Assembly: GCA_002869685.1 (NCBI GenBank)
Contig: PKUE01000146.1
Location: forward strand, 4,882-68,881
From: Desulfuromonas sp.
GTDB lineage: Bacteria; Desulfobacterota; Desulfuromonadia; Desulfuromonadales; Desulfuromonadaceae
Direction: 5' to 3'
Length of the DNA stretch: 64,000 bases
A model generated the notes under the pieces. That model was not told the DNA's origin. It was given only the letters and a program-made list of their open reading frames with translations, and ran no database searches. Each line of letters begins with the position of its first letter. Within the stretch, counting starts at the first letter, position 1. The position numbers and the translations under genes were made by a program. This document shows positions 40 through 57,657 of this stretch, in pieces.

Positions 40-531
40 TTAGTCGGTTAAGAGTGTTGCAAGTGCGTCTTTGTCCGCCGAAGTCAGCTCGACAATGACA
101 GGCAGTTCATCTGCCAAGTAATAGAACTTGTGGCTCCCCGCCTCATTAGAAGGCTCACTTTCCTCTTCATTGACCTCGGGCAGGTTCAGAGAGAAGGTCT
201 GGTCTTCGGGCAGGACCTCTGTCATGAACAAACCTGCCAGGGTATTGAGGGTTTCGGCCAGAAGATCCTCTACCTGTTTAGGCGTGATTTCATCACGATC
301 TATGGTATAGACGGTTTCAACAACCTGCAGCAATAGTTCCTCATCCATCTCCAGGCGCATTTCCAACAGCAGCGGCTTGGTCACAAGCAGGGTGACACTC
401 AGCCGTTTACCGGTGATTTCTTCGATCTCTTCCTTGCTGCTGTCGTCTACACCAAGAAACGCCATGTTCTCGAGAGTTTCCCCCAGAACGGATGATATTT
501 TTTCCTGTAACTTCTGATTGAATTCTTCCAT
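40..531 (-). CDS. cheX: CheX-family chemotaxis phosphatase-like protein
   Basis: 163 aa, 'VLGETLENMAF...LAETLNTLAG' resembles the CheC/CheX ExxN pattern; last visible gene of the che operon. Confidence 0.65.
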   Translation of the reverse strand: MEEFNQKLQEKISSVLGETLENMAFLGVDDSSKEEIEEITGKRLSVTLLVTKPLLLEMRLEMDEELLLQVVETVYTIDRDEITPKQVEDLLAETLNTLAGLFMTEVLPEDQTFSLNLPEVNEEESEPSNEAGSHKFYYLADELPVIVELTSADKDALATLLTD

Positions 532-532
532 A

Positions 533-916
533 TCAGTCTTCCTCCGATTCCAGGAATGGGGTCAGAACTTCACTGAGGATTGCCGGATTTACGGGTTTAT
601 TAACCACAGAAAACGCTCCCATGTCGAGCAATTCCTGTGACTTCGCCGGGTTGCCTGCGCTGGTGATGATCAAAACCGGCATATCAGTAAGCTTGGGACT
701 GGCTTTGACCCATTTGAGCAGGGCTTCGCCGTCCATCACCGGCATATTCAGATCACTGACGAGAAGGTCTGTCGGCTCCTGCTTGACCAGCGCCAGGGCT
801 TCTTTGCCGTTTTCCGCCTCGGCAAATTCAGCATCCATCAGACCGACAATTTCCAGGCATCGCCGGATCATCATGCGAGCGGTGGAGGAATCGTCAGCGA
901 TAACTATCCTTTTCAT
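533..916 (-). CDS. cheY: Single-domain response regulator (CheY-like)
   Basis: IADDS, LVSDLNMPVMDG (phospho-Asp), ITS and NKP receiver motifs; 127 aa. Confidence 0.9.
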   Translation of the reverse strand: MKRIVIADDSSTARMMIRRCLEIVGLMDAEFAEAENGKEALALVKQEPTDLLVSDLNMPVMDGEALLKWVKASPKLTDMPVLIITSAGNPAKSQELLDMGAFSVVNKPVNPAILSEVLTPFLESEED

Positions 917-1791
917 AGGGATGTCTCCTTTGTATCAGACATTGCGCTGTCGAGCGTATCGAATGCCTCGTTAACTTCAAGCATAACAGATGCAATTTGC
1001 TCTGACGTTAAATCAAAATATTCAGTGTAGTTTTTATTAAGATGATATTGCAATGAGTCGGAAGCTTGACTACCACACATCATGGCAATAATGCAACCGA
1101 GGTGCACGGCGTACACCAGCAGTTTGTATTCCTCCGGCGCCTCATCCGGACGGTGATGATAGCGAATGGCCATTTGCAGGCTTTCAGGCAATTCCCAATT
1201 CTTGGCCAATACATAACCGGCTTCGGTATGGTCAATGCCCAACAGGTCACGCTCTCCGGCCAGATAGTCGCTGACTTCGTGGCTGTCAATCCCGACCAGA
1301 ACTTCGTTGGCCGTTTTACCGAGAAAGTCGGATAGGACCGCTTTGCCCACCGCATGAAGTATGCCTGCGGTAAAGGCCAAATCTGGACTCAGGGGTTCTT
1401 TGGCAAAGCGGGCAATTTCGCGTGCGGCAATCGCGGTGCGCAGGTCATGGTTCCACAGTTCACTCTTGGGACCCTCATAGCCTGCAAGTTCCTTGTGGAA
1501 CAGAGCCGAGGCACTGTCTCCAAGGGCGATTCCGGCCACCATGCGTTCTCCCAGATAGGAGACCGCCCGGTCGATGGTGGTCACCTCATGCGCCAGACCA
1601 TAGGCGACAGAGTTGACAATTTTAAGAACGCGCGCCGTCAGGGACGCGTCGCATTTGACAATGTCGATCACTTCCTTGATGTCGTGGTCTTCCTGCGACG
1701 TAATCTGCAGCAGTCGGGAAGCACTGGGAGATAACAGAGGAACTTCTTCAATCGCTTTAAGGATCTCTTCTTTACTGGCACGTTGTTTCAT
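913..1791 (-). CDS. HDOD domain protein (degenerate HD motif)
   Basis: 'VPLLSPSASRLL...DASLTARVLKIVNS...IDRAVSYLG...GILHAVGK...GIDHTEAG..LAKNWELP...IRYHH'; start reassigned to the ATG at 1791 behind a GGAGGG RBS. Confidence 0.9.
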   Translation of the reverse strand: MKQRASKEEILKAIEEVPLLSPSASRLLQITSQEDHDIKEVIDIVKCDASLTARVLKIVNSVAYGLAHEVTTIDRAVSYLGERMVAGIALGDSASALFHKELAGYEGPKSELWNHDLRTAIAAREIARFAKEPLSPDLAFTAGILHAVGKAVLSDFLGKTANEVLVGIDSHEVSDYLAGERDLLGIDHTEAGYVLAKNWELPESLQMAIRYHHRPDEAPEEYKLLVYAVHLGCIIAMMCGSQASDSLQYHLNKNYTEYFDLTSEQIASVMLEVNEAFDTLDSAMSDTKETSL

Positions 1792-1804
1792 CTGTCCCTC
1801 CCTT

Positions 1805-2293
1805 CTATAGTTTCCACTCGCCACGTCCGGGCGAGGATAAAACAACTTCTCCTGTGGTGACGGAAACCGAAACCGTTCGGCTGTATGTCGCCCCGAGATC
1901 TTCGGCAACAGGTCCAAGAGCGTATTTCCACAAGATTTTCTTAACGGCAAGCGCATTGCGTTTACCAATGTTGAACGTGTTGTTGGGGTCCATGATTTTG
2001 GCACCACCCGCCAGCTTGACAATGAAACCGCGACCTCGTGGGTCGCAGCCCATGCCAGCCATCTGTTGCATCAGGGCCGGTATGCCGGTATCGGCAAAGT
2101 AGCCTGGACGGGTTTTGACTTTTTCGGGGTTGATCTTGGATTCCGGCAGCGCGACGTGGACCATGCCGACGGTGCGTGTTTTCGGGCACATCAGAATGAC
2201 CGCGACACAGGATCCGAGTGCGAATGTTTTTACAATATCACCGGAGGTCCGTGAGGCCCCGAATTCGCCAACCCCTAGAATCAAGTTGCTCAT
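1805..2293 (-). CDS. cheD: Chemoreceptor glutamine deamidase CheD
   Basis: TFALGSCVAV (Cys), GMVHVALP (His), YFADTGI, KLAGGA, IGKRN, EDLG motifs. Confidence 0.95.
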   Translation of the reverse strand: MSNLILGVGEFGASRTSGDIVKTFALGSCVAVILMCPKTRTVGMVHVALPESKINPEKVKTRPGYFADTGIPALMQQMAGMGCDPRGRGFIVKLAGGAKIMDPNNTFNIGKRNALAVKKILWKYALGPVAEDLGATYSRTVSVSVTTGEVVLSSPGRGEWKL

Positions 2294-2298
2294 AGTGT

Positions 2299-3354
2299 TT
2301 ACTTCTCCGTCAGCAGGGAAATGACCTGGGCCGCAATGCGGTCGATCGGAAACAGTTTTTCTGCTCCCCCTCTTTCGTAGGCGACTTTCGGCATGCCAAA
2401 AACGACCGAAGAAGCCTCATCCTGGGCAATGTTGCGTGCTCCTGCGTTTTTCATGGCCAGCATTCCGTCGGCTCCATCCGATCCCATGCCCGTTAACATG
2501 ACGCCGACGGCGTTGCGCCCGACCTGCTTGGCAACGGAATGCATCATGACATCGACGGAAGGGCAGTGGCCACTGACTTTTTCGCCCGGAGCACAACGGA
2601 CCTGGTAAATGCCTCCCGAGCGGATAACTTCCATCTGCATGGCACCGGGGGCGACCAGGATCCGTCCGGGGCGGATACGGTCACCGTTTTCCGCCTCTTT
2701 AACTTCCATGGCACACAGTTGATTGAGGCGCTCGGAAAACATTTTGGTGAATCCGGGGGGCATGTGCTGAACAATCACCACACCGGGCATGGTGGCCGGA
2801 AACTGGGTGACCACCTTCTTGATGGCCTCGGTACCTCCGGTTGATGCGCCGATGGCGACCACTTTGTCCGTTGATTCGGCCAGGGCTCTTGACGCGCCCG
2901 ATGTTATCGAACTGCGTGCTTCGACCCGCTTGCCTTTCCAGTGGGAAACGTTGGCTGTGGAGGCAATCTTGACCTTGGCGCGAAGCTCCATCAGCATGGC
3001 GTTGAGCCCCTGGGCAACATTGGTCGTCGGTTTGGTGACAAAGTCAACGGCACCGGCTTCAAGAGCCTCCATGGTGATCTGCTTCCCTTTCTGAGTCAGG
3101 GAGCTGACCATGACGATGGGCAACGGATATTGAGGCATGAGTTTGCGCAGAAATTCCACGCCGTCCATGCGGGGCATCTCGACATCCAGGGTCAAAACGT
3201 CCGGCTTGAGTTGAACGATTTTATCCCGAGCCATATAGGGGTCGGCCGCTGAGCCCACGACTTCAATCCCCGGATCCATCGCCAGTCCGTTAGTCAGAAT
3301 CTGGCGGACAAGGGCGGAGTCGTCAACGACAAGAACACGTACCGGCTTAGCCAT
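2299..3354 (-). CDS. cheB: Chemotaxis response regulator methylesterase CheB
   Basis: N-terminal receiver plus GASTGG, VQHMP, HCPSVD, LTGMGSDG. Confidence 0.97.
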   Translation of the reverse strand: MAKPVRVLVVDDSALVRQILTNGLAMDPGIEVVGSAADPYMARDKIVQLKPDVLTLDVEMPRMDGVEFLRKLMPQYPLPIVMVSSLTQKGKQITMEALEAGAVDFVTKPTTNVAQGLNAMLMELRAKVKIASTANVSHWKGKRVEARSSITSGASRALAESTDKVVAIGASTGGTEAIKKVVTQFPATMPGVVIVQHMPPGFTKMFSERLNQLCAMEVKEAENGDRIRPGRILVAPGAMQMEVIRSGGIYQVRCAPGEKVSGHCPSVDVMMHSVAKQVGRNAVGVMLTGMGSDGADGMLAMKNAGARNIAQDEASSVVFGMPKVAYERGGAEKLFPIDRIAAQVISLLTEK

Positions 3355-4235
3355 TACAAGGTTCCTTTTTGATAAGCCGCAGGCATGAGATAACGGAAGA
3401 ACTGGCTGTCTCGGCCCAGAGTCTCCGAATGGCCGATGAAGAAGTAGCCATCAGGTTCCATGCTGCGGTGAAAACGTTGCACAAGAGCGTTACGGGTCTG
3501 TTGGTCAAAGTAAATCATGACATTGCGGCAGAAGATGATCTGAAACGGCTTCTTGAACGGAAATGTCGTATTCATCAGATTGAAGCGACGAAATGTCACT
3601 TCCTTGCGAATTTTGTCGATCACCTGCATCCGTCCGTCGGGCAGGCGGGTAAAATATTTTTTTTGCAGATTGTCGGGCAGCGATGCCACTTTGTCGGCAG
3701 AGTAGATCCCCTGACTTGCGGTTGAGAGCACCCGTTCGGAGATGTCTGTCGCCAGAATGCCGGCATCCCACTGACCATATTGGGCGCCGAGAAATTCGTG
3801 CATCAGCATCAGCAGCGTGTAGGGCTCTTCACCGGTGGAACATCCGGCACACCAGACCCTCAGGTCTTTGCGTTTTTGCTGCTCAAGCTTTTGACACACG
3901 GCGGGCAGCGCCGTTTTGACAAAGTAGTCAAAATGATCCTTCTCGCGATTAAAATAGGTGTAGTTCGTTGACACCATGTTAATCAAATCGCTGACCGCTT
4001 TGCCCGAGGTATCTGTTTTCAGGTAGTCATAATAATCCTGAAACGTACCGATTTTGTTGGTGCGCAACATCTTCTGCAGGCGTCCGACCAGCAGTGAGCG
4101 TTTTTCATCCGTCAGATTGATGCCAAAACGATCGTAGATCAAACGACGCAGTGCGTTGAACTCTTCATCCGTAATGGTCATCATGGATGTGTTGCGGAGT
4201 GGCATGGTCGCGCCGTTATTGTTGTCAGGGGTCAT
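3354..4235 (-). CDS. cheR: Chemotaxis methyltransferase CheR
   Basis: TNYTYFNRE, VWCAGCSTGEEPY, ATDIS, IFCRNVMIYF, GHSE. Confidence 0.97.
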   Translation of the reverse strand: MTPDNNNGATMPLRNTSMMTITDEEFNALRRLIYDRFGINLTDEKRSLLVGRLQKMLRTNKIGTFQDYYDYLKTDTSGKAVSDLINMVSTNYTYFNREKDHFDYFVKTALPAVCQKLEQQKRKDLRVWCAGCSTGEEPYTLLMLMHEFLGAQYGQWDAGILATDISERVLSTASQGIYSADKVASLPDNLQKKYFTRLPDGRMQVIDKIRKEVTFRRFNLMNTTFPFKKPFQIIFCRNVMIYFDQQTRNALVQRFHRSMEPDGYFFIGHSETLGRDSQFFRYLMPAAYQKGTL

Positions 4236-4251: not shown

Positions 4252-6564
4252 TTATTTCAACTCAACAAGATTGCCAACATCAAGAATGAGACTGACATCG
4301 CCATTCCCAAGAATAGTACAGCCCGAGCAGCCGCGAACGTTGCCGATGTATTCGGACAGGCCTTTGATGACGGTCTGCTGTTGACCGAGGATTTCGTCGA
4401 CCATCAGGCAGATGCTACGTCCCTGGTATTCCAGAACGATCAAAATAGAGTCAACCAGTTCAGAGTGCTCAGGCTGGGTTTCCAGGAGCTCATGCAGGCG
4501 TACGACAGGGAAGAAGCTCTCGCGAACACGAACCAACTCTTCATTGTCTGGTGTGACTGTGATCGCATCCGGTTGCGGGCGGAACGCTTCTTTGATCGAC
4601 AGGATCGGCACGATGCAACGGGCTTCGCCTACCCGGACCAACATGCCATCAATGATGGCCAGGGTCAGAGGAATGCGCAATTTGATCTTGGTGCCCTGGC
4701 CGGGGATGCTATCGACGTCAACTTTACCTTTGATTTTCTCCAGGTTCTGTTTGACGACGTCCATCCCGACGCCACGGCCCGAAATGTCAGTGATCTTGTC
4801 CGCTGTCGAGAAGCCGGGTTGGAAAATCAGGTTGTAGATTTCCTTATCGGTGAGGTCGGAACCGTCACCGTCAACCAGACCGTTGGTGATGGCTTTGGCG
4901 AGGATCTTTTCCTTGTTGAGTCCACGGCCATCGTCTTCCAGAGTGATCCAGACCTCTCCCTCCTCATGGCAGGCATTCAGACGGATGATGCCGGTTTCAC
5001 TCTTGCCGGCGGCCACGCGCTCTCCCGGGGGCTCCAGGCCATGGTCCATGGAGTTACGCAAAATGTGCACCAGTGGGTCGGTGATGGTTTCGATAACGGT
5101 TTTGTCCACCTCGGTGGATTCTCCGGACAGTTTGAGATCGACTTTTTTACCCGATTTGACCGACAGGTCATGGACCAGGCGAATCATGCGGCGGAACAGG
5201 CCAGACACCGGAATCATGCGGATGATCATCGCCATTTCCTGCAGTTCGCGGACCAGCTTGCCCATCTGTTGCGCTGCTTTGTTGAAACTTTCCAACTCCA
5301 ATCCTTCAAGGTCCGGATTGTGGATCAGCATGTTTTCGGCAATAACCAACTCGCCGATCAGATTGATCAGGTTGTCGAGTTTTTCAAGGTCAACGCGGAT
5401 ATCCTGGCGCTTGACCGCGGAGGCTTTCGGCTTCGATTTTGCCGCCGGTGCCGGTACGCTTTTCTTGACCTGACTCTGGCTGGACAGGGCTTCGTCAACC
5501 TGCTCCTTAGACGCCTTGCCCATTTCAACGATCAGGTCGCCGAGGGGTTTTTTCTGCTGGCTCAGGGCTTGGTTGACGGTTTCCTCATCGACAACGCCTT
5601 TTTCGACCAGAACCTCGCCGATACGCGGTGAGGGGAGTTGCTTGAGGGCTTCAATGTGGGTGTCGATATCCTCAATGACATCCTGGCCGTTTTCACCAAG
5701 TGAATTGAGGCCGTCCTTCAGCGCGTCGACGGACTGCAGTAAAACCTCAAAGGGGTTTTCTGTGGCAAATGAACCGCCGCTCTTGACGATATCAAGAACG
5801 TTTTCAATCTGGTGGCTGAGTCTTTCGAGGTTGCCGTAACCGAAAAAGCCACTATTCCCTTTGAAGCTGTGAATGCTGCGGAAGATGATGGCAACCTGGT
5901 CCTGGGTGTCTGGGTCTTTTTCCCACGACAAGAGGCCCTGTTCCGCTGCGTCGAGCAGCTCGTCCGCTTCCTGAACAAAGCGTTCGACCATTTCACTTGT
6001 GATTTCAAGGGTCAGGTCGTCATTGACTTCGATCTGGCTGGGATCTAATTTCTCTTCTTTAGCTTCGCCAGGAGTCTCATCGGCTGCTTCTTCGGTTGAA
6101 GCAGTGGGGGGCTCCTCCACCGTTTCGCCAGTGGTGGGTTCGTCAGCGGCGTCATCTTGTGGTGCCTCCATGGCTTCATGGAACTGTGCCGCCATGGCGA
6201 TACCCTGTTCCTCCATGGCTTCATCGTTGAAGTGCTCGTCGACGACATCGAGGGCTTCTTTGGTGAAGTCGCAACATTCGCAGAGCAGAGTGACGTGCTC
6301 GGGCAGCAGAGTCATTTTGCCGGATCGAACCAGATCAAGGAGGCTTTCCGCTGCGTGGGCCACACTTGTGATGTGGTTGAATTCGAGGAAGCCCGCACTG
6401 CCTTTCATTGAGTGGAACAGCCGGAAGACCGCGTTGATGGTCTCATTGTCGGTGTTTTGTCCCAGCTCAATGATCGTCGGTTCAAGTTGCTCGATCATGT
6501 CGCGGCTTTCCTGGACAAATTCCTGGATAATTTCTATTTGATCACTGCTCAGCTCGTCGGTCAT
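4252..6564 (-). CDS. cheA: Chemotaxis histidine kinase CheA with two Hpt domains and an MshEN-like insert
   Basis: FHSMKGSAG and IHSFKGNSG Hpt motifs; IRVDLEKLDNLINLIGELVI dimerisation domain; HILRNSMDHG, DDGRG, GFSTA..SGRGVGMDVV; C-terminal CheW-like P5; start reassigned to the ATG at 6564. Confidence 0.97.
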   Translation of the reverse strand: MTDELSSDQIEIIQEFVQESRDMIEQLEPTIIELGQNTDNETINAVFRLFHSMKGSAGFLEFNHITSVAHAAESLLDLVRSGKMTLLPEHVTLLCECCDFTKEALDVVDEHFNDEAMEEQGIAMAAQFHEAMEAPQDDAADEPTTGETVEEPPTASTEEAADETPGEAKEEKLDPSQIEVNDDLTLEITSEMVERFVQEADELLDAAEQGLLSWEKDPDTQDQVAIIFRSIHSFKGNSGFFGYGNLERLSHQIENVLDIVKSGGSFATENPFEVLLQSVDALKDGLNSLGENGQDVIEDIDTHIEALKQLPSPRIGEVLVEKGVVDEETVNQALSQQKKPLGDLIVEMGKASKEQVDEALSSQSQVKKSVPAPAAKSKPKASAVKRQDIRVDLEKLDNLINLIGELVIAENMLIHNPDLEGLELESFNKAAQQMGKLVRELQEMAMIIRMIPVSGLFRRMIRLVHDLSVKSGKKVDLKLSGESTEVDKTVIETITDPLVHILRNSMDHGLEPPGERVAAGKSETGIIRLNACHEEGEVWITLEDDGRGLNKEKILAKAITNGLVDGDGSDLTDKEIYNLIFQPGFSTADKITDISGRGVGMDVVKQNLEKIKGKVDVDSIPGQGTKIKLRIPLTLAIIDGMLVRVGEARCIVPILSIKEAFRPQPDAITVTPDNEELVRVRESFFPVVRLHELLETQPEHSELVDSILIVLEYQGRSICLMVDEILGQQQTVIKGLSEYIGNVRGCSGCTILGNGDVSLILDVGNLVELK

Positions 6565-56988: not shown

Positions 56989-57657
56989 GTGGCGGACTTT
57001 GTTTTATTTAAATATCTTGAAAAACCAAGTTTGCTGCGCGTGTTCCTGCTCTTGCCGGACGATGTCAAAGTGCGTCTGGAGGCGGTAGCACGGATTATTG
57101 CCGAGCCCTACCTTGAGGTAAAGTTTCGTCCTGACGAATTGCCGCTCGATCTGGTACGTACCGGCGGGAAGATGCTCCTCTCGCTTGATACGCGTGTTGG
57201 CACTGTTTCCATGTATGCGCACATTGATGAGGTGGTCAATTCTCGTGTTCTCAGGTTGATGGGCCTTGAATCGTTTGCCTTTGCCCAGCAGCGTGAATAT
57301 TTCCGGGTGAATACCGCGATCAAAGTAGTTTACAGTAAAGAAACCCTCTCATCTAAGCCCTCACCCAAAGTGCCAACCGCTACCGTAAATCTGAGCGGCA
57401 ATGGTGTTCTGATTTCTGCTGAAGAAAAATTCGTGGCCGGTGAAACCTACCAGCTAGAGTTTCATCTTCCTGACGCCAATGTCCTTTTATTCTGTAAAGC
57501 TCTTGTTGTTCGCGTCGATGAAAAACTGCGTGGCGGCTATGAAGTGGCCATGACCTATCATGATATAGAGCAGGAAGATCGAGATCGGATTATCTCGTTC
57601 TGTCTGGCTGAACAGCGTCGGTTATTGCGTACCAAGGTTCAGATTGCCGGTTTTTGA
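56989..57657 (+). CDS. PilZ-domain protein (YcgR/flagellar brake-like)
   Basis: QREYFRV (RxxxR) and NLSGNG (D/NxSxxG). Confidence 0.88.
   Translation: MADFVLFKYLEKPSLLRVFLLLPDDVKVRLEAVARIIAEPYLEVKFRPDELPLDLVRTGGKMLLSLDTRVGTVSMYAHIDEVVNSRVLRLMGLESFAFAQQREYFRVNTAIKVVYSKETLSSKPSPKVPTATVNLSGNGVLISAEEKFVAGETYQLEFHLPDANVLLFCKALVVRVDEKLRGGYEVAMTYHDIEQEDRDRIISFCLAEQRRLLRTKVQIAGF

Follow-up and report, generated by a model that had tools for sequence, protein, structure and literature searches.

A stand-alone MshEN_N module, a probable c-di-GMP receptor, inside a chemotaxis kinase CheA of Desulfuromonas

Background

Cyclic di-GMP (c-di-GMP) is the main switch between the swimming and the attached life of bacteria, and chemotaxis steers the swimming. 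The known links between c-di-GMP and chemotaxis run via PilZ proteins, which act on receptors (the PilZ chemoreceptors Tlp1 of Azospirillum and Cbp1 of Azorhizobium), on the methyltransferase CheR (MapZ-CheR1 in Pseudomonas aeruginosa) or on the motor (YcgR-type brakes). In this work we describe a chemotaxis kinase, CheA, encoded in a stretch of 64,000 nucleotides from Desulfuromonas sp. (contig PKUE01000146.1; the whole stretch is called the window below), in which a module of another fold, related to MshEN, a domain that binds c-di-GMP, lies within the kinase itself. As in the PilZ routes, the second messenger would bias flagellar behaviour, but with a receptor module within CheA, c-di-GMP would be able to tune the entire pathway, in gain or in bias, at the central kinase.

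The best structural match of the module is MshEN of Vibrio cholerae (structure 5HTL), likewise a four-helix bundle made of two 24-residue motifs, RLGxxLLxxGLLxxxxLxxxLxxQ. It differs by its 5-residue spacer, by Arg at both motif starts and by a C-terminal alpha/beta subdomain with a secretion ATPase behind it, whereas the window CheA has the N-terminal subdomain only (MshEN_N), embedded in a histidine kinase. In MshEN, backbone amides read the O6 and N7 of guanine, and the substitution G11I in MshE abolishes c-di-GMP binding. The N-subdomain alone suffices, because VcMshEN_N 1-65 binds c-di-GMP with a dissociation constant (KD) of 0.35 μM (PMC5013675, Supplementary Table 6).

The GSPII domains of PilF, a pilus ATPase, are also MshEN-type bundles, with spacers of 5-7 residues, and two of them, GSPII-B and GSPII-C, bind c-di-GMP without Arg at motif position 1. 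GSPII-B does so at 6 nM with Lys and Leu at that position, so the Arg is dispensable, and the consensus at position 1 has formally been widened to (R/K/L) (PMC11731258). GSPII-C holds a Pro-initiated KPLGEILVELG motif nearly identical to the second motif of our CheA (PMC11731258, PMC12002112); this domain has three motif copies, any of which may hold the ligand. In related domains the ligand unwinds a helical turn and reorients the subdomains, and in truncated constructs it induces folding (PMC11731258, PMC12002112).

A CheA-MshEN_N fusion was catalogued by Wang et al. 2016 (Nat Commun 7:12481, PMC5013675, Supplementary Table 4), just as a preliminary description of this DNA, made from the sequence alone, had guessed that domain surveys might already list such proteins. 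One example, fragment 261-390 of the Aeromonas veronii CheA, binds c-di-GMP with a KD of 2.6 μM by isothermal titration calorimetry (PMC5013675, Supplementary Table 6). That protein also has the four-helix module just upstream of the dimerisation domain P3. It has one Hpt domain and a P2, however, where the window CheA has two Hpt domains and lacks P2; its spacer is longer than the 2 residues found here, and its motif I (MLG...) is weaker, that of the window CheA being canonical and followed by a motif II that opens with Pro. A second CheA of this genome (contig C110) is the one that matches the Aeromonas-type layout. Our literature search returned only the 2016 paper on c-di-GMP and CheA via MshEN, reviews merely citing it, and no report of a ligand effect on any CheA.

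The fusion, and binding by one example, have thus been in print since 2016, and this CheA is a further case. What is added here is that the short-spacer, Pro-initiated form is the norm in CheA, that the fusion partner of the module is a second Hpt domain, and that the module is dispensable and evolutionarily labile within one order. In our view residues 314-363 of the window CheA form a stand-alone MshEN_N bundle, which probably binds one extended c-di-GMP and would thereby control the kinase. This view is built on what was found here, namely the motif, the profile match, the fold prediction, the pattern of conservation, the module's accessory nature and a c-di-GMP-rich genome, and on the work of others, in which isolated MshEN_N was sufficient for binding, the Arg at position 1 could be dispensed with, and an MshEN_N embedded in a CheA bound c-di-GMP.

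Results and discussion

A tandem MshEN_N motif in front of P3

Positions 5476-5625 of the window, read on the minus strand, encode residues 314-363 of CheA: RIGEVLVEKGVVDEETVNQALSQQ, then KK, then PLGDLIVEMGKASKEQVDEALSSQ. Both 24-residue repeats reported in the preliminary description are therefore present before the dimerisation domain, and their MshEN-like identity was confirmed by hidden Markov model (HMM) search. The plus-strand reading of the same positions gives a sequence unrelated to the repeats. NCBIfam model NF053729 (c-di-GMP_motif, MshE-related; 53 positions, curated cut-off 38 bits) was matched in full from position 1 to 53, at 48.4 bits (E 6e-13) with the whole CheA and at 54.7 bits (E 6e-15) with the 50-mer alone, which is far beyond chance. 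The search for MshEN/T2SSE_N thus succeeded with the MshE-related model and failed with the other one, as Pfam T2SSE_N (PF05157) had no match in CheA at E≤1. This lack of a match is in keeping with a module made up of MshEN_N, the N-terminal four-helix subdomain, and nothing more: the full MshEN/T2SSE_N domain comprises the bundle and a C-terminal alpha/beta subdomain, about 145 residues together, and in CheA the bundle runs into a disordered linker and then P3.

The motifs were also compared with the relaxed 24-residue motif of Wang et al. 2016, [RKPN]hGxxhhxx[GAS]hhxxxxhxxxhxx[QNKRYWST], which has 11 constrained positions. Motif I fits at 11/11 and motif II at 10/11 of them, the exception being Lys350 at position 11, the first hydrophobic position past the turn Gly; Pro at position 1 is explicitly permitted. 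Defining the ligand-contact set of each motif as Gly at position 3 with the next backbone amide, the hydrophobic positions 2, 17 and 21, and Gln at position 24, we found all predicted contact residues in place, I315, G316, V330, L334 and Q337 in motif I and L341, G342, V356, L360 and Q363 in motif II.

Other sequence comparisons led to the same families. The best match in the PDB was GSPII-C in PilF of Thermus thermophilus (6f8l, residues 303-360, E 1.7e-10), the second motif of which also starts with KPLG, and further PilF GSPII entries were matched along with V. cholerae MshE (5htl, E 2e-4). The C-terminal MshEN-like region of NfrB, a c-di-GMP-activated glycosyltransferase, aligns at residues 314-363 too. 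Several other assignments were considered and rejected. FumaraseC_C reached 23.8 bits against a cut-off of 32.5, and fumarase C-termini appeared in Foldseek with a probability of at most 0.25; sub-threshold Pfam matches to DUF4388/PATAN, UBA and 3HCDH were seen as well. All of these were put down to generic helical-hairpin similarity.

Predicted fold of the module

A full-length AlphaFold2 (AF2) model of CheA was built from 74 homologues, with a mean predicted local distance difference test (pLDDT) score of 79. In it the module starts about 5 residues past the last helix of the second Hpt domain and consists of four short helices, 315-321, 327-335, 341-347 and 353-365, at pLDDT 75-84. Residues 296-373 were also modelled on their own. 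In a Foldseek search of the PDB with this second model, the top 13 matches are all N-domains of MshE, PilF GSPII-B or PilB, at a root-mean-square deviation (rmsd) of 1.1-1.9 Å, so that structure prediction bears out the MshEN-like assignment as well. Rank 1 is 5htl_A, V. cholerae MshE with c-di-GMP, at 1.1 Å over 55 columns with 38% identity and probability 1.00; next come c-di-GMP-bound structures of PilF GSPII-B at 1.1-1.5 Å. The N-domain of the non-binder XpsE (2d28) follows only at rank 16, with 2.8 Å. AF2 still builds the bundle with the 2-residue spacer, at the said 1.1 Å from 5HTL, though tested binders have longer loops. The prediction is compatibility with the MshEN_N fold, not proof of binding.

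Conservation and the CheA-embedded form

A homologue search over 5.8 billion proteins gave 859 relatives, of which 120 were listed. The closest are CheAs of Desulfuromonas, that of D. acetoxidans being 84% identical in the region. All 120 listed relatives hold the tandem motif; the spacer has 2 residues in 97 of them, and Pro opens motif II in 112. In an alignment of 74 sequences, which underlies the column statistics given here, G316, G323, G342, G349 and Q363 are invariant, and P313, L319, Q337 (93%), P340 and L345 are conserved at 90% or above. The mean entropy per column amounts to 1.4-1.5 bits for the motifs and to 2.4-2.5 bits for both flanking linkers. The columns under conservation coincide with the positions constrained in the MshEN motif; among them are Gly at position 3 and the terminal Gln, by which binders differ from non-binders. 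About 46% of the aligned relatives have Leu for Arg314 together with a one-residue deletion past G323.

For a wider view, a fragment spanning the insert and P3 was used in an exhaustive HMMER search of 1.84 billion cluster representatives, which gave 2676 matches at E≤1e-3. Among the best 150 of these, which were inspected, 127 had the P3 anchor and 75 a strong tandem (each motif ≥9/11), ending 14-61 residues ahead of P3 (median 26). The design is hence common, with at least 75 distinct CheA clusters at 50% identity among the best 150 of the 2676 matches. Of these 75 diverse CheA representatives, 57 have a spacer of 2 residues, 46 have Pro at the start of motif II and 16 at the start of motif I, and two Hpt-type His motifs occur in 38. 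The preliminary description had set the KK linker and Pro in place of Arg against its own proposal. Both features are real, but given the frequencies of 57/75 and 46/75 we read them as the signature of the CheA-embedded module and not as defects of this copy.

Gain, decay and loss of the module within the order

In a sample of 121 genomes of the same order, 83 had a match. Approximately 42 orthologues match over the insert and P3, whereas about 24 orthologous CheAs match from P3 onward only. Among the orthologous genes inspected as examples, two (L024 in genome G026 and L025 in G019) encode Hpt-Hpt, a Pro/Ala-rich linker and P3, and have no motif. One (L026, genome G005) retains a decayed relic, RLA.../PLV..., in which the glycines at position 3 are gone, as are one turn Gly and the terminal Gln, and another (L027, genome G090) has three perfect consecutive motifs, like PilF GSPII-C. 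Where the module is retained, the ligand-contact residues stay fixed.

Gain, multiplication, decay and loss of the module are all seen within one order. As orthologues exist in which it is absent or decayed, these sequences indicate that the kinase works without it, and the double-Hpt orthologues with a Pro/Ala linker in its place rule out a structural necessity of the module for this class of CheA. The occurrence of intact, triplicated, decayed and missing modules among orthologous CheAs of the same order points to an accessory input; such a labile yet constrained pattern would be expected of an optional regulatory element and argues against a purely structural spacer.

Binding or docking

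One alternative keeps the MshEN_N fold and drops the nucleotide: the domain would be a structured spacer or a docking element between the second Hpt domain (P1b) and P3, for instance for CheY, CheX or an array partner. We consider this unlikely, since the positions telling binders from non-binders (Gly at position 3 in both motifs and the terminal Gln) are invariant or nearly so, the model fits ligand-bound MshE and GSPII-B much better than XpsE, and the CheA-embedded module of A. veronii binds with a poorer motif I. The docking explanation draws its strength from the 2-residue spacer, Pro340 and Lys350, all of which deviate from the canonical motif, and from the T2SSE_N superfamily at large, which has non-binders such as XpsE and, with its PilZ complexes among the fold matches, the PilB N-domain of Xanthomonas. 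Related N-domains of GspE/XpsE bind GspL/XpsL. Near-consensus domains can indeed be non-binders, PilF GSPII-A having an intact fold and no binding with its terminal Gln replaced by His and Arg (PMC12002112).

The same PilF example, in which small deviations abolish binding and leave the fold intact, also weighs against our preferred reading of the module as a c-di-GMP receptor, as do several further points. Motif II opens with Pro in place of Arg, and the first core position past its turn Gly is taken by Lys. The tested binders have spacers of 5 residues (VcMshE, GSPII-B), 7 (GSPII-C) and about 9 (A. veronii CheA), and we found no published binding measurement for an MshEN_N with a 2-residue spacer; this is the main residual doubt on c-di-GMP binding. 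The fragment model is of moderate quality (pLDDT 72.6), the shortness of the domain leaves Foldseek with weak E-values (0.017), and the holo-like geometry may be no more than that of 5HTL, learnt by AF2 in training. Binding need not alter the fused enzyme either, for the ATPase activity of MshE is unchanged by c-di-GMP in vitro.

Proposed mode of action

For the form with the 2-residue spacer we infer both the binding and any effect on kinase activity, including its direction, and the following scheme is meant in that sense. The C-terminal helix of P1b would carry the bundle on one side, and on the other some 25 residues of flexible basic linker would tether it to P3. If the site is like those of 5HTL and PilF GSPII-B, backbone amides of G316/E317 and of G342/D343 would read the Hoogsteen edges of the two guanines, each base would be stacked between the clusters (I315-V356-L360 and L341-V330-L334) on one face and R314 and P340 on the other, and Q337 and Q363 would complete the sites. 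Ligand binding may then fold or stiffen the bundle beside P1b and place a charged ligand next to it, and the shortened or altered P1b-P3 tether could shift the frequency with which P1b reaches the ATP site of P4 or the response regulators (CheY, CheB). In this way the cellular level of c-di-GMP would bias flagellar chemotaxis output at the kinase itself. High c-di-GMP might be expected to lower the switching output, by analogy with MapZ and YcgR, but this direction is a guess.

Domain layout of CheA

According to the list of open reading frames (ORFs) and the translation, the gene occupies 4252-6564 on the minus strand, with ATG at 6564 and the stop codon at 4252-4254, and encodes 770 residues. 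A longer ORF with a TTG start, reaching 6660, was ruled out as the gene, the homologue consensus opening at the ATG at 6564. The protein is identified as CheA by its Pfam domains, Hpt twice, H-kinase_dim, HATPase_c and CheW, and Pfam, alignment and neighbouring genes together give everything that defines a CheA: the Hpt His, P3, P4 HATPase_c, the CheW-like P5 and a che cluster. The order is Hpt, acidic linker, Hpt, MshEN_N, basic linker, P3, P4 and P5 (Table 1).

The second complete Hpt domain, which stands directly before the module, had been missed in the preliminary description. Both phospho-acceptors, His51 of the first Hpt (P1a) and His232 of the second, are invariant in the 74 sequences. 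The two complete Hpt domains (window 5641-6546, minus strand) are kept apart by an acidic disordered linker of about 55 residues.

P2, the CheY-binding domain, is present in the E. coli-type CheA and is not universal. No Pfam P2 match was found in this CheA at E≤1, and the best stretch aligned to PRK10547, a model of the E. coli type, does not begin before residue 353. The AF2 model has no folded domain between the two Hpt domains, residues 137-186 being disordered (pLDDT about 30), and this segment therefore hides no cryptic P2. The earlier statement that the motif sits where P2 is normally found is correct as to the missing P2; the module is no general replacement of P2, since both the Aeromonas type and the C110 CheA have it alongside a P2-like region.

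Table 1. Features of CheA and of the genes downstream of it, in window coordinates
Feature	Position	Strand	Basis or remarks
First Hpt (P1a), residues ~7-133	6166..6546	-	Pfam Hpt 11-98; AF2 helices 7-133, pLDDT ~90
Acidic, variable, disordered linker, residues 134-189	5998..6165	-	pLDDT ~30; entropy 2.47; gaps 36%
Second Hpt (P1b), residues ~190-308	5641..5997	-	Pfam Hpt, 2 stretches; HSFKG at residue 232; AF2 four-helix domain, pLDDT ~90
MshEN motif I RIGEVLVEKGVVDEETVNQALSQQ, residues 314-337	5554..5625	-	predicted alpha1 + alpha2; AF2 helices 315-321, 327-335
Spacer KK, residues 338-339	5548..5553	-	2 residues
MshEN motif II PLGDLIVEMGKASKEQVDEALSSQ, residues 340-363	5476..5547	-	predicted alpha3 + alpha4; AF2 helices 341-347, 353-365
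Basic Lys/Pro/Ala-rich flexible linker from module to P3, residues 364-386	5407..5475	-	entropy 2.37; pLDDT 36-50
P3 dimerisation domain, residues 387-449	5218..5406	-	Pfam H-kinase_dim 387-447
P4 kinase + P5 CheW-like, residues 450-770	4255..5217	-	Pfam HATPase_c 496-634, CheW 640-768
cheR	3354-4235	-	Pfam scan
cheB	2299-3354	-	Pfam scan
cheD	1805-2293	-	Pfam scan
HDOD protein gene	within 913-2022	-	Pfam scan
cheY-like REC gene	533-916	-	Pfam scan
cheX	40-531	-	Pfam scan

Genomic context

A Pfam scan shows cheA as the first gene of a minus-strand operon, cheA-cheR-cheB-cheD-HDOD-cheY-cheX, in which the downstream genes together span 40..4235. A TPR gene, with flgB, flgC and fliF behind it, is transcribed divergently from cheA, and the system is therefore one of flagellar chemotaxis. 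The HDOD gene lies between cheD and the cheY-like REC gene; its listed ORF overlaps cheD, which makes a start further downstream probable. A link to c-di-GMP signalling is frequent among HDOD proteins.

Elsewhere in the window, between fliS and fliK, a 222-residue PilZ protein is encoded at 56989-57657 on the plus strand. Its PilZ domain covers residues 100-206, and the N-terminal region of about 100 residues is of YcgR-like size. This protein is a probable second c-di-GMP input to motility, and given its place in the flagellar cluster, motility here would probably have at least two such inputs.

Cyclic dinucleotide signalling in the genome

With about 70 GGDEF matches in 3.1 Mb, the draft genome is very densely stocked with c-di-GMP enzymes. 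It also has 7 PilZ matches, 11 MshEN-motif matches and one c-di-GMP-I riboswitch (C88:7498-7573). In one of the GGDEF proteins, a 368-residue GAF-GGDEF protein on contig C30 (L028:310-1416, plus strand), Ser replaces Asp at the base-specifying position of GH..GD (NDNHGHLVGS). Ser at this position is the signature of Hypr GGDEF enzymes, which make 3'3'-cyclic GMP-AMP (3'3'-cGAMP).

The Ser-type enzyme raises the question of the ligand. The module might be a receptor for 3'3'-cGAMP or for a mixture of dinucleotides, its non-identical half-sites, R-type motif I and P-type motif II, reading different bases; we hold this to be very improbable. Desulfuromonadales is the lineage in which Hypr-GGDEF/cGAMP signalling was found (PMC8835794), VcMshEN binds cGAMP detectably, and the change of Arg to Leu with a one-residue deletion makes motif I asymmetrically altered in many orthologues. 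That binding is, however, about 600-fold weaker than for c-di-GMP (330 μM against 0.5 μM), and the reading of guanine O6 and N7 by the backbone disfavours adenine, both half-sites here retaining the Gly-acidic pair. Only 1 of the 47 GGDEF domains scorable by regular expression is of the Ser type, the other 46 being of the canonical Asp type. The Pro-initiated, short-spacer form is, moreover, widespread among CheA representatives of different 50%-identity clusters.

A bolder version, to which we likewise give only a slim chance, takes the CheA-embedded form as a distinct subclass, in which the unequal half-sites would read cGAMP or tell it from c-di-GMP and the ligand may select which Hpt feeds the kinase. 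If this is true, Hypr-GGDEF cGAMP signalling would gain a protein receptor, of which none was found described in the literature searched, and a second messenger would reach the chemotaxis kinase directly.

Three CheA genes are present in the genome, and two of the encoded proteins carry a module of the MshEN_N type. The second such paralogue, of 706 residues (contig C110, L021:6844-8964, plus strand), has the layout Hpt, P2-like region, module and P3-P4-P5. Its tandem stands directly before P3 with a 1-residue spacer and Gln for the turn Gly of motif II, and it scores 43 bits with NF053729, above the cut-off. The gene belongs to a cluster REC-STAS-cheA-cheW-MCP-cheR (MCP, methyl-accepting chemotaxis protein), and CheA paralogues of this type are widespread in the order.

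Two further proteins of the genome bear on the module family. A 261-residue DnaJ-domain protein on contig C153 (L022:2863-3648, minus strand) has two MshEN_N modules. On contig C151 (L020:2210-3538, plus strand) a 442-residue REC-DUF4388 (PATAN) protein shows a weak match to the MshEN motif; its gene belongs to a non-flagellar chemosensory cluster, where it adjoins those for an Hpt-CheW protein and for a CheA-REC hybrid.

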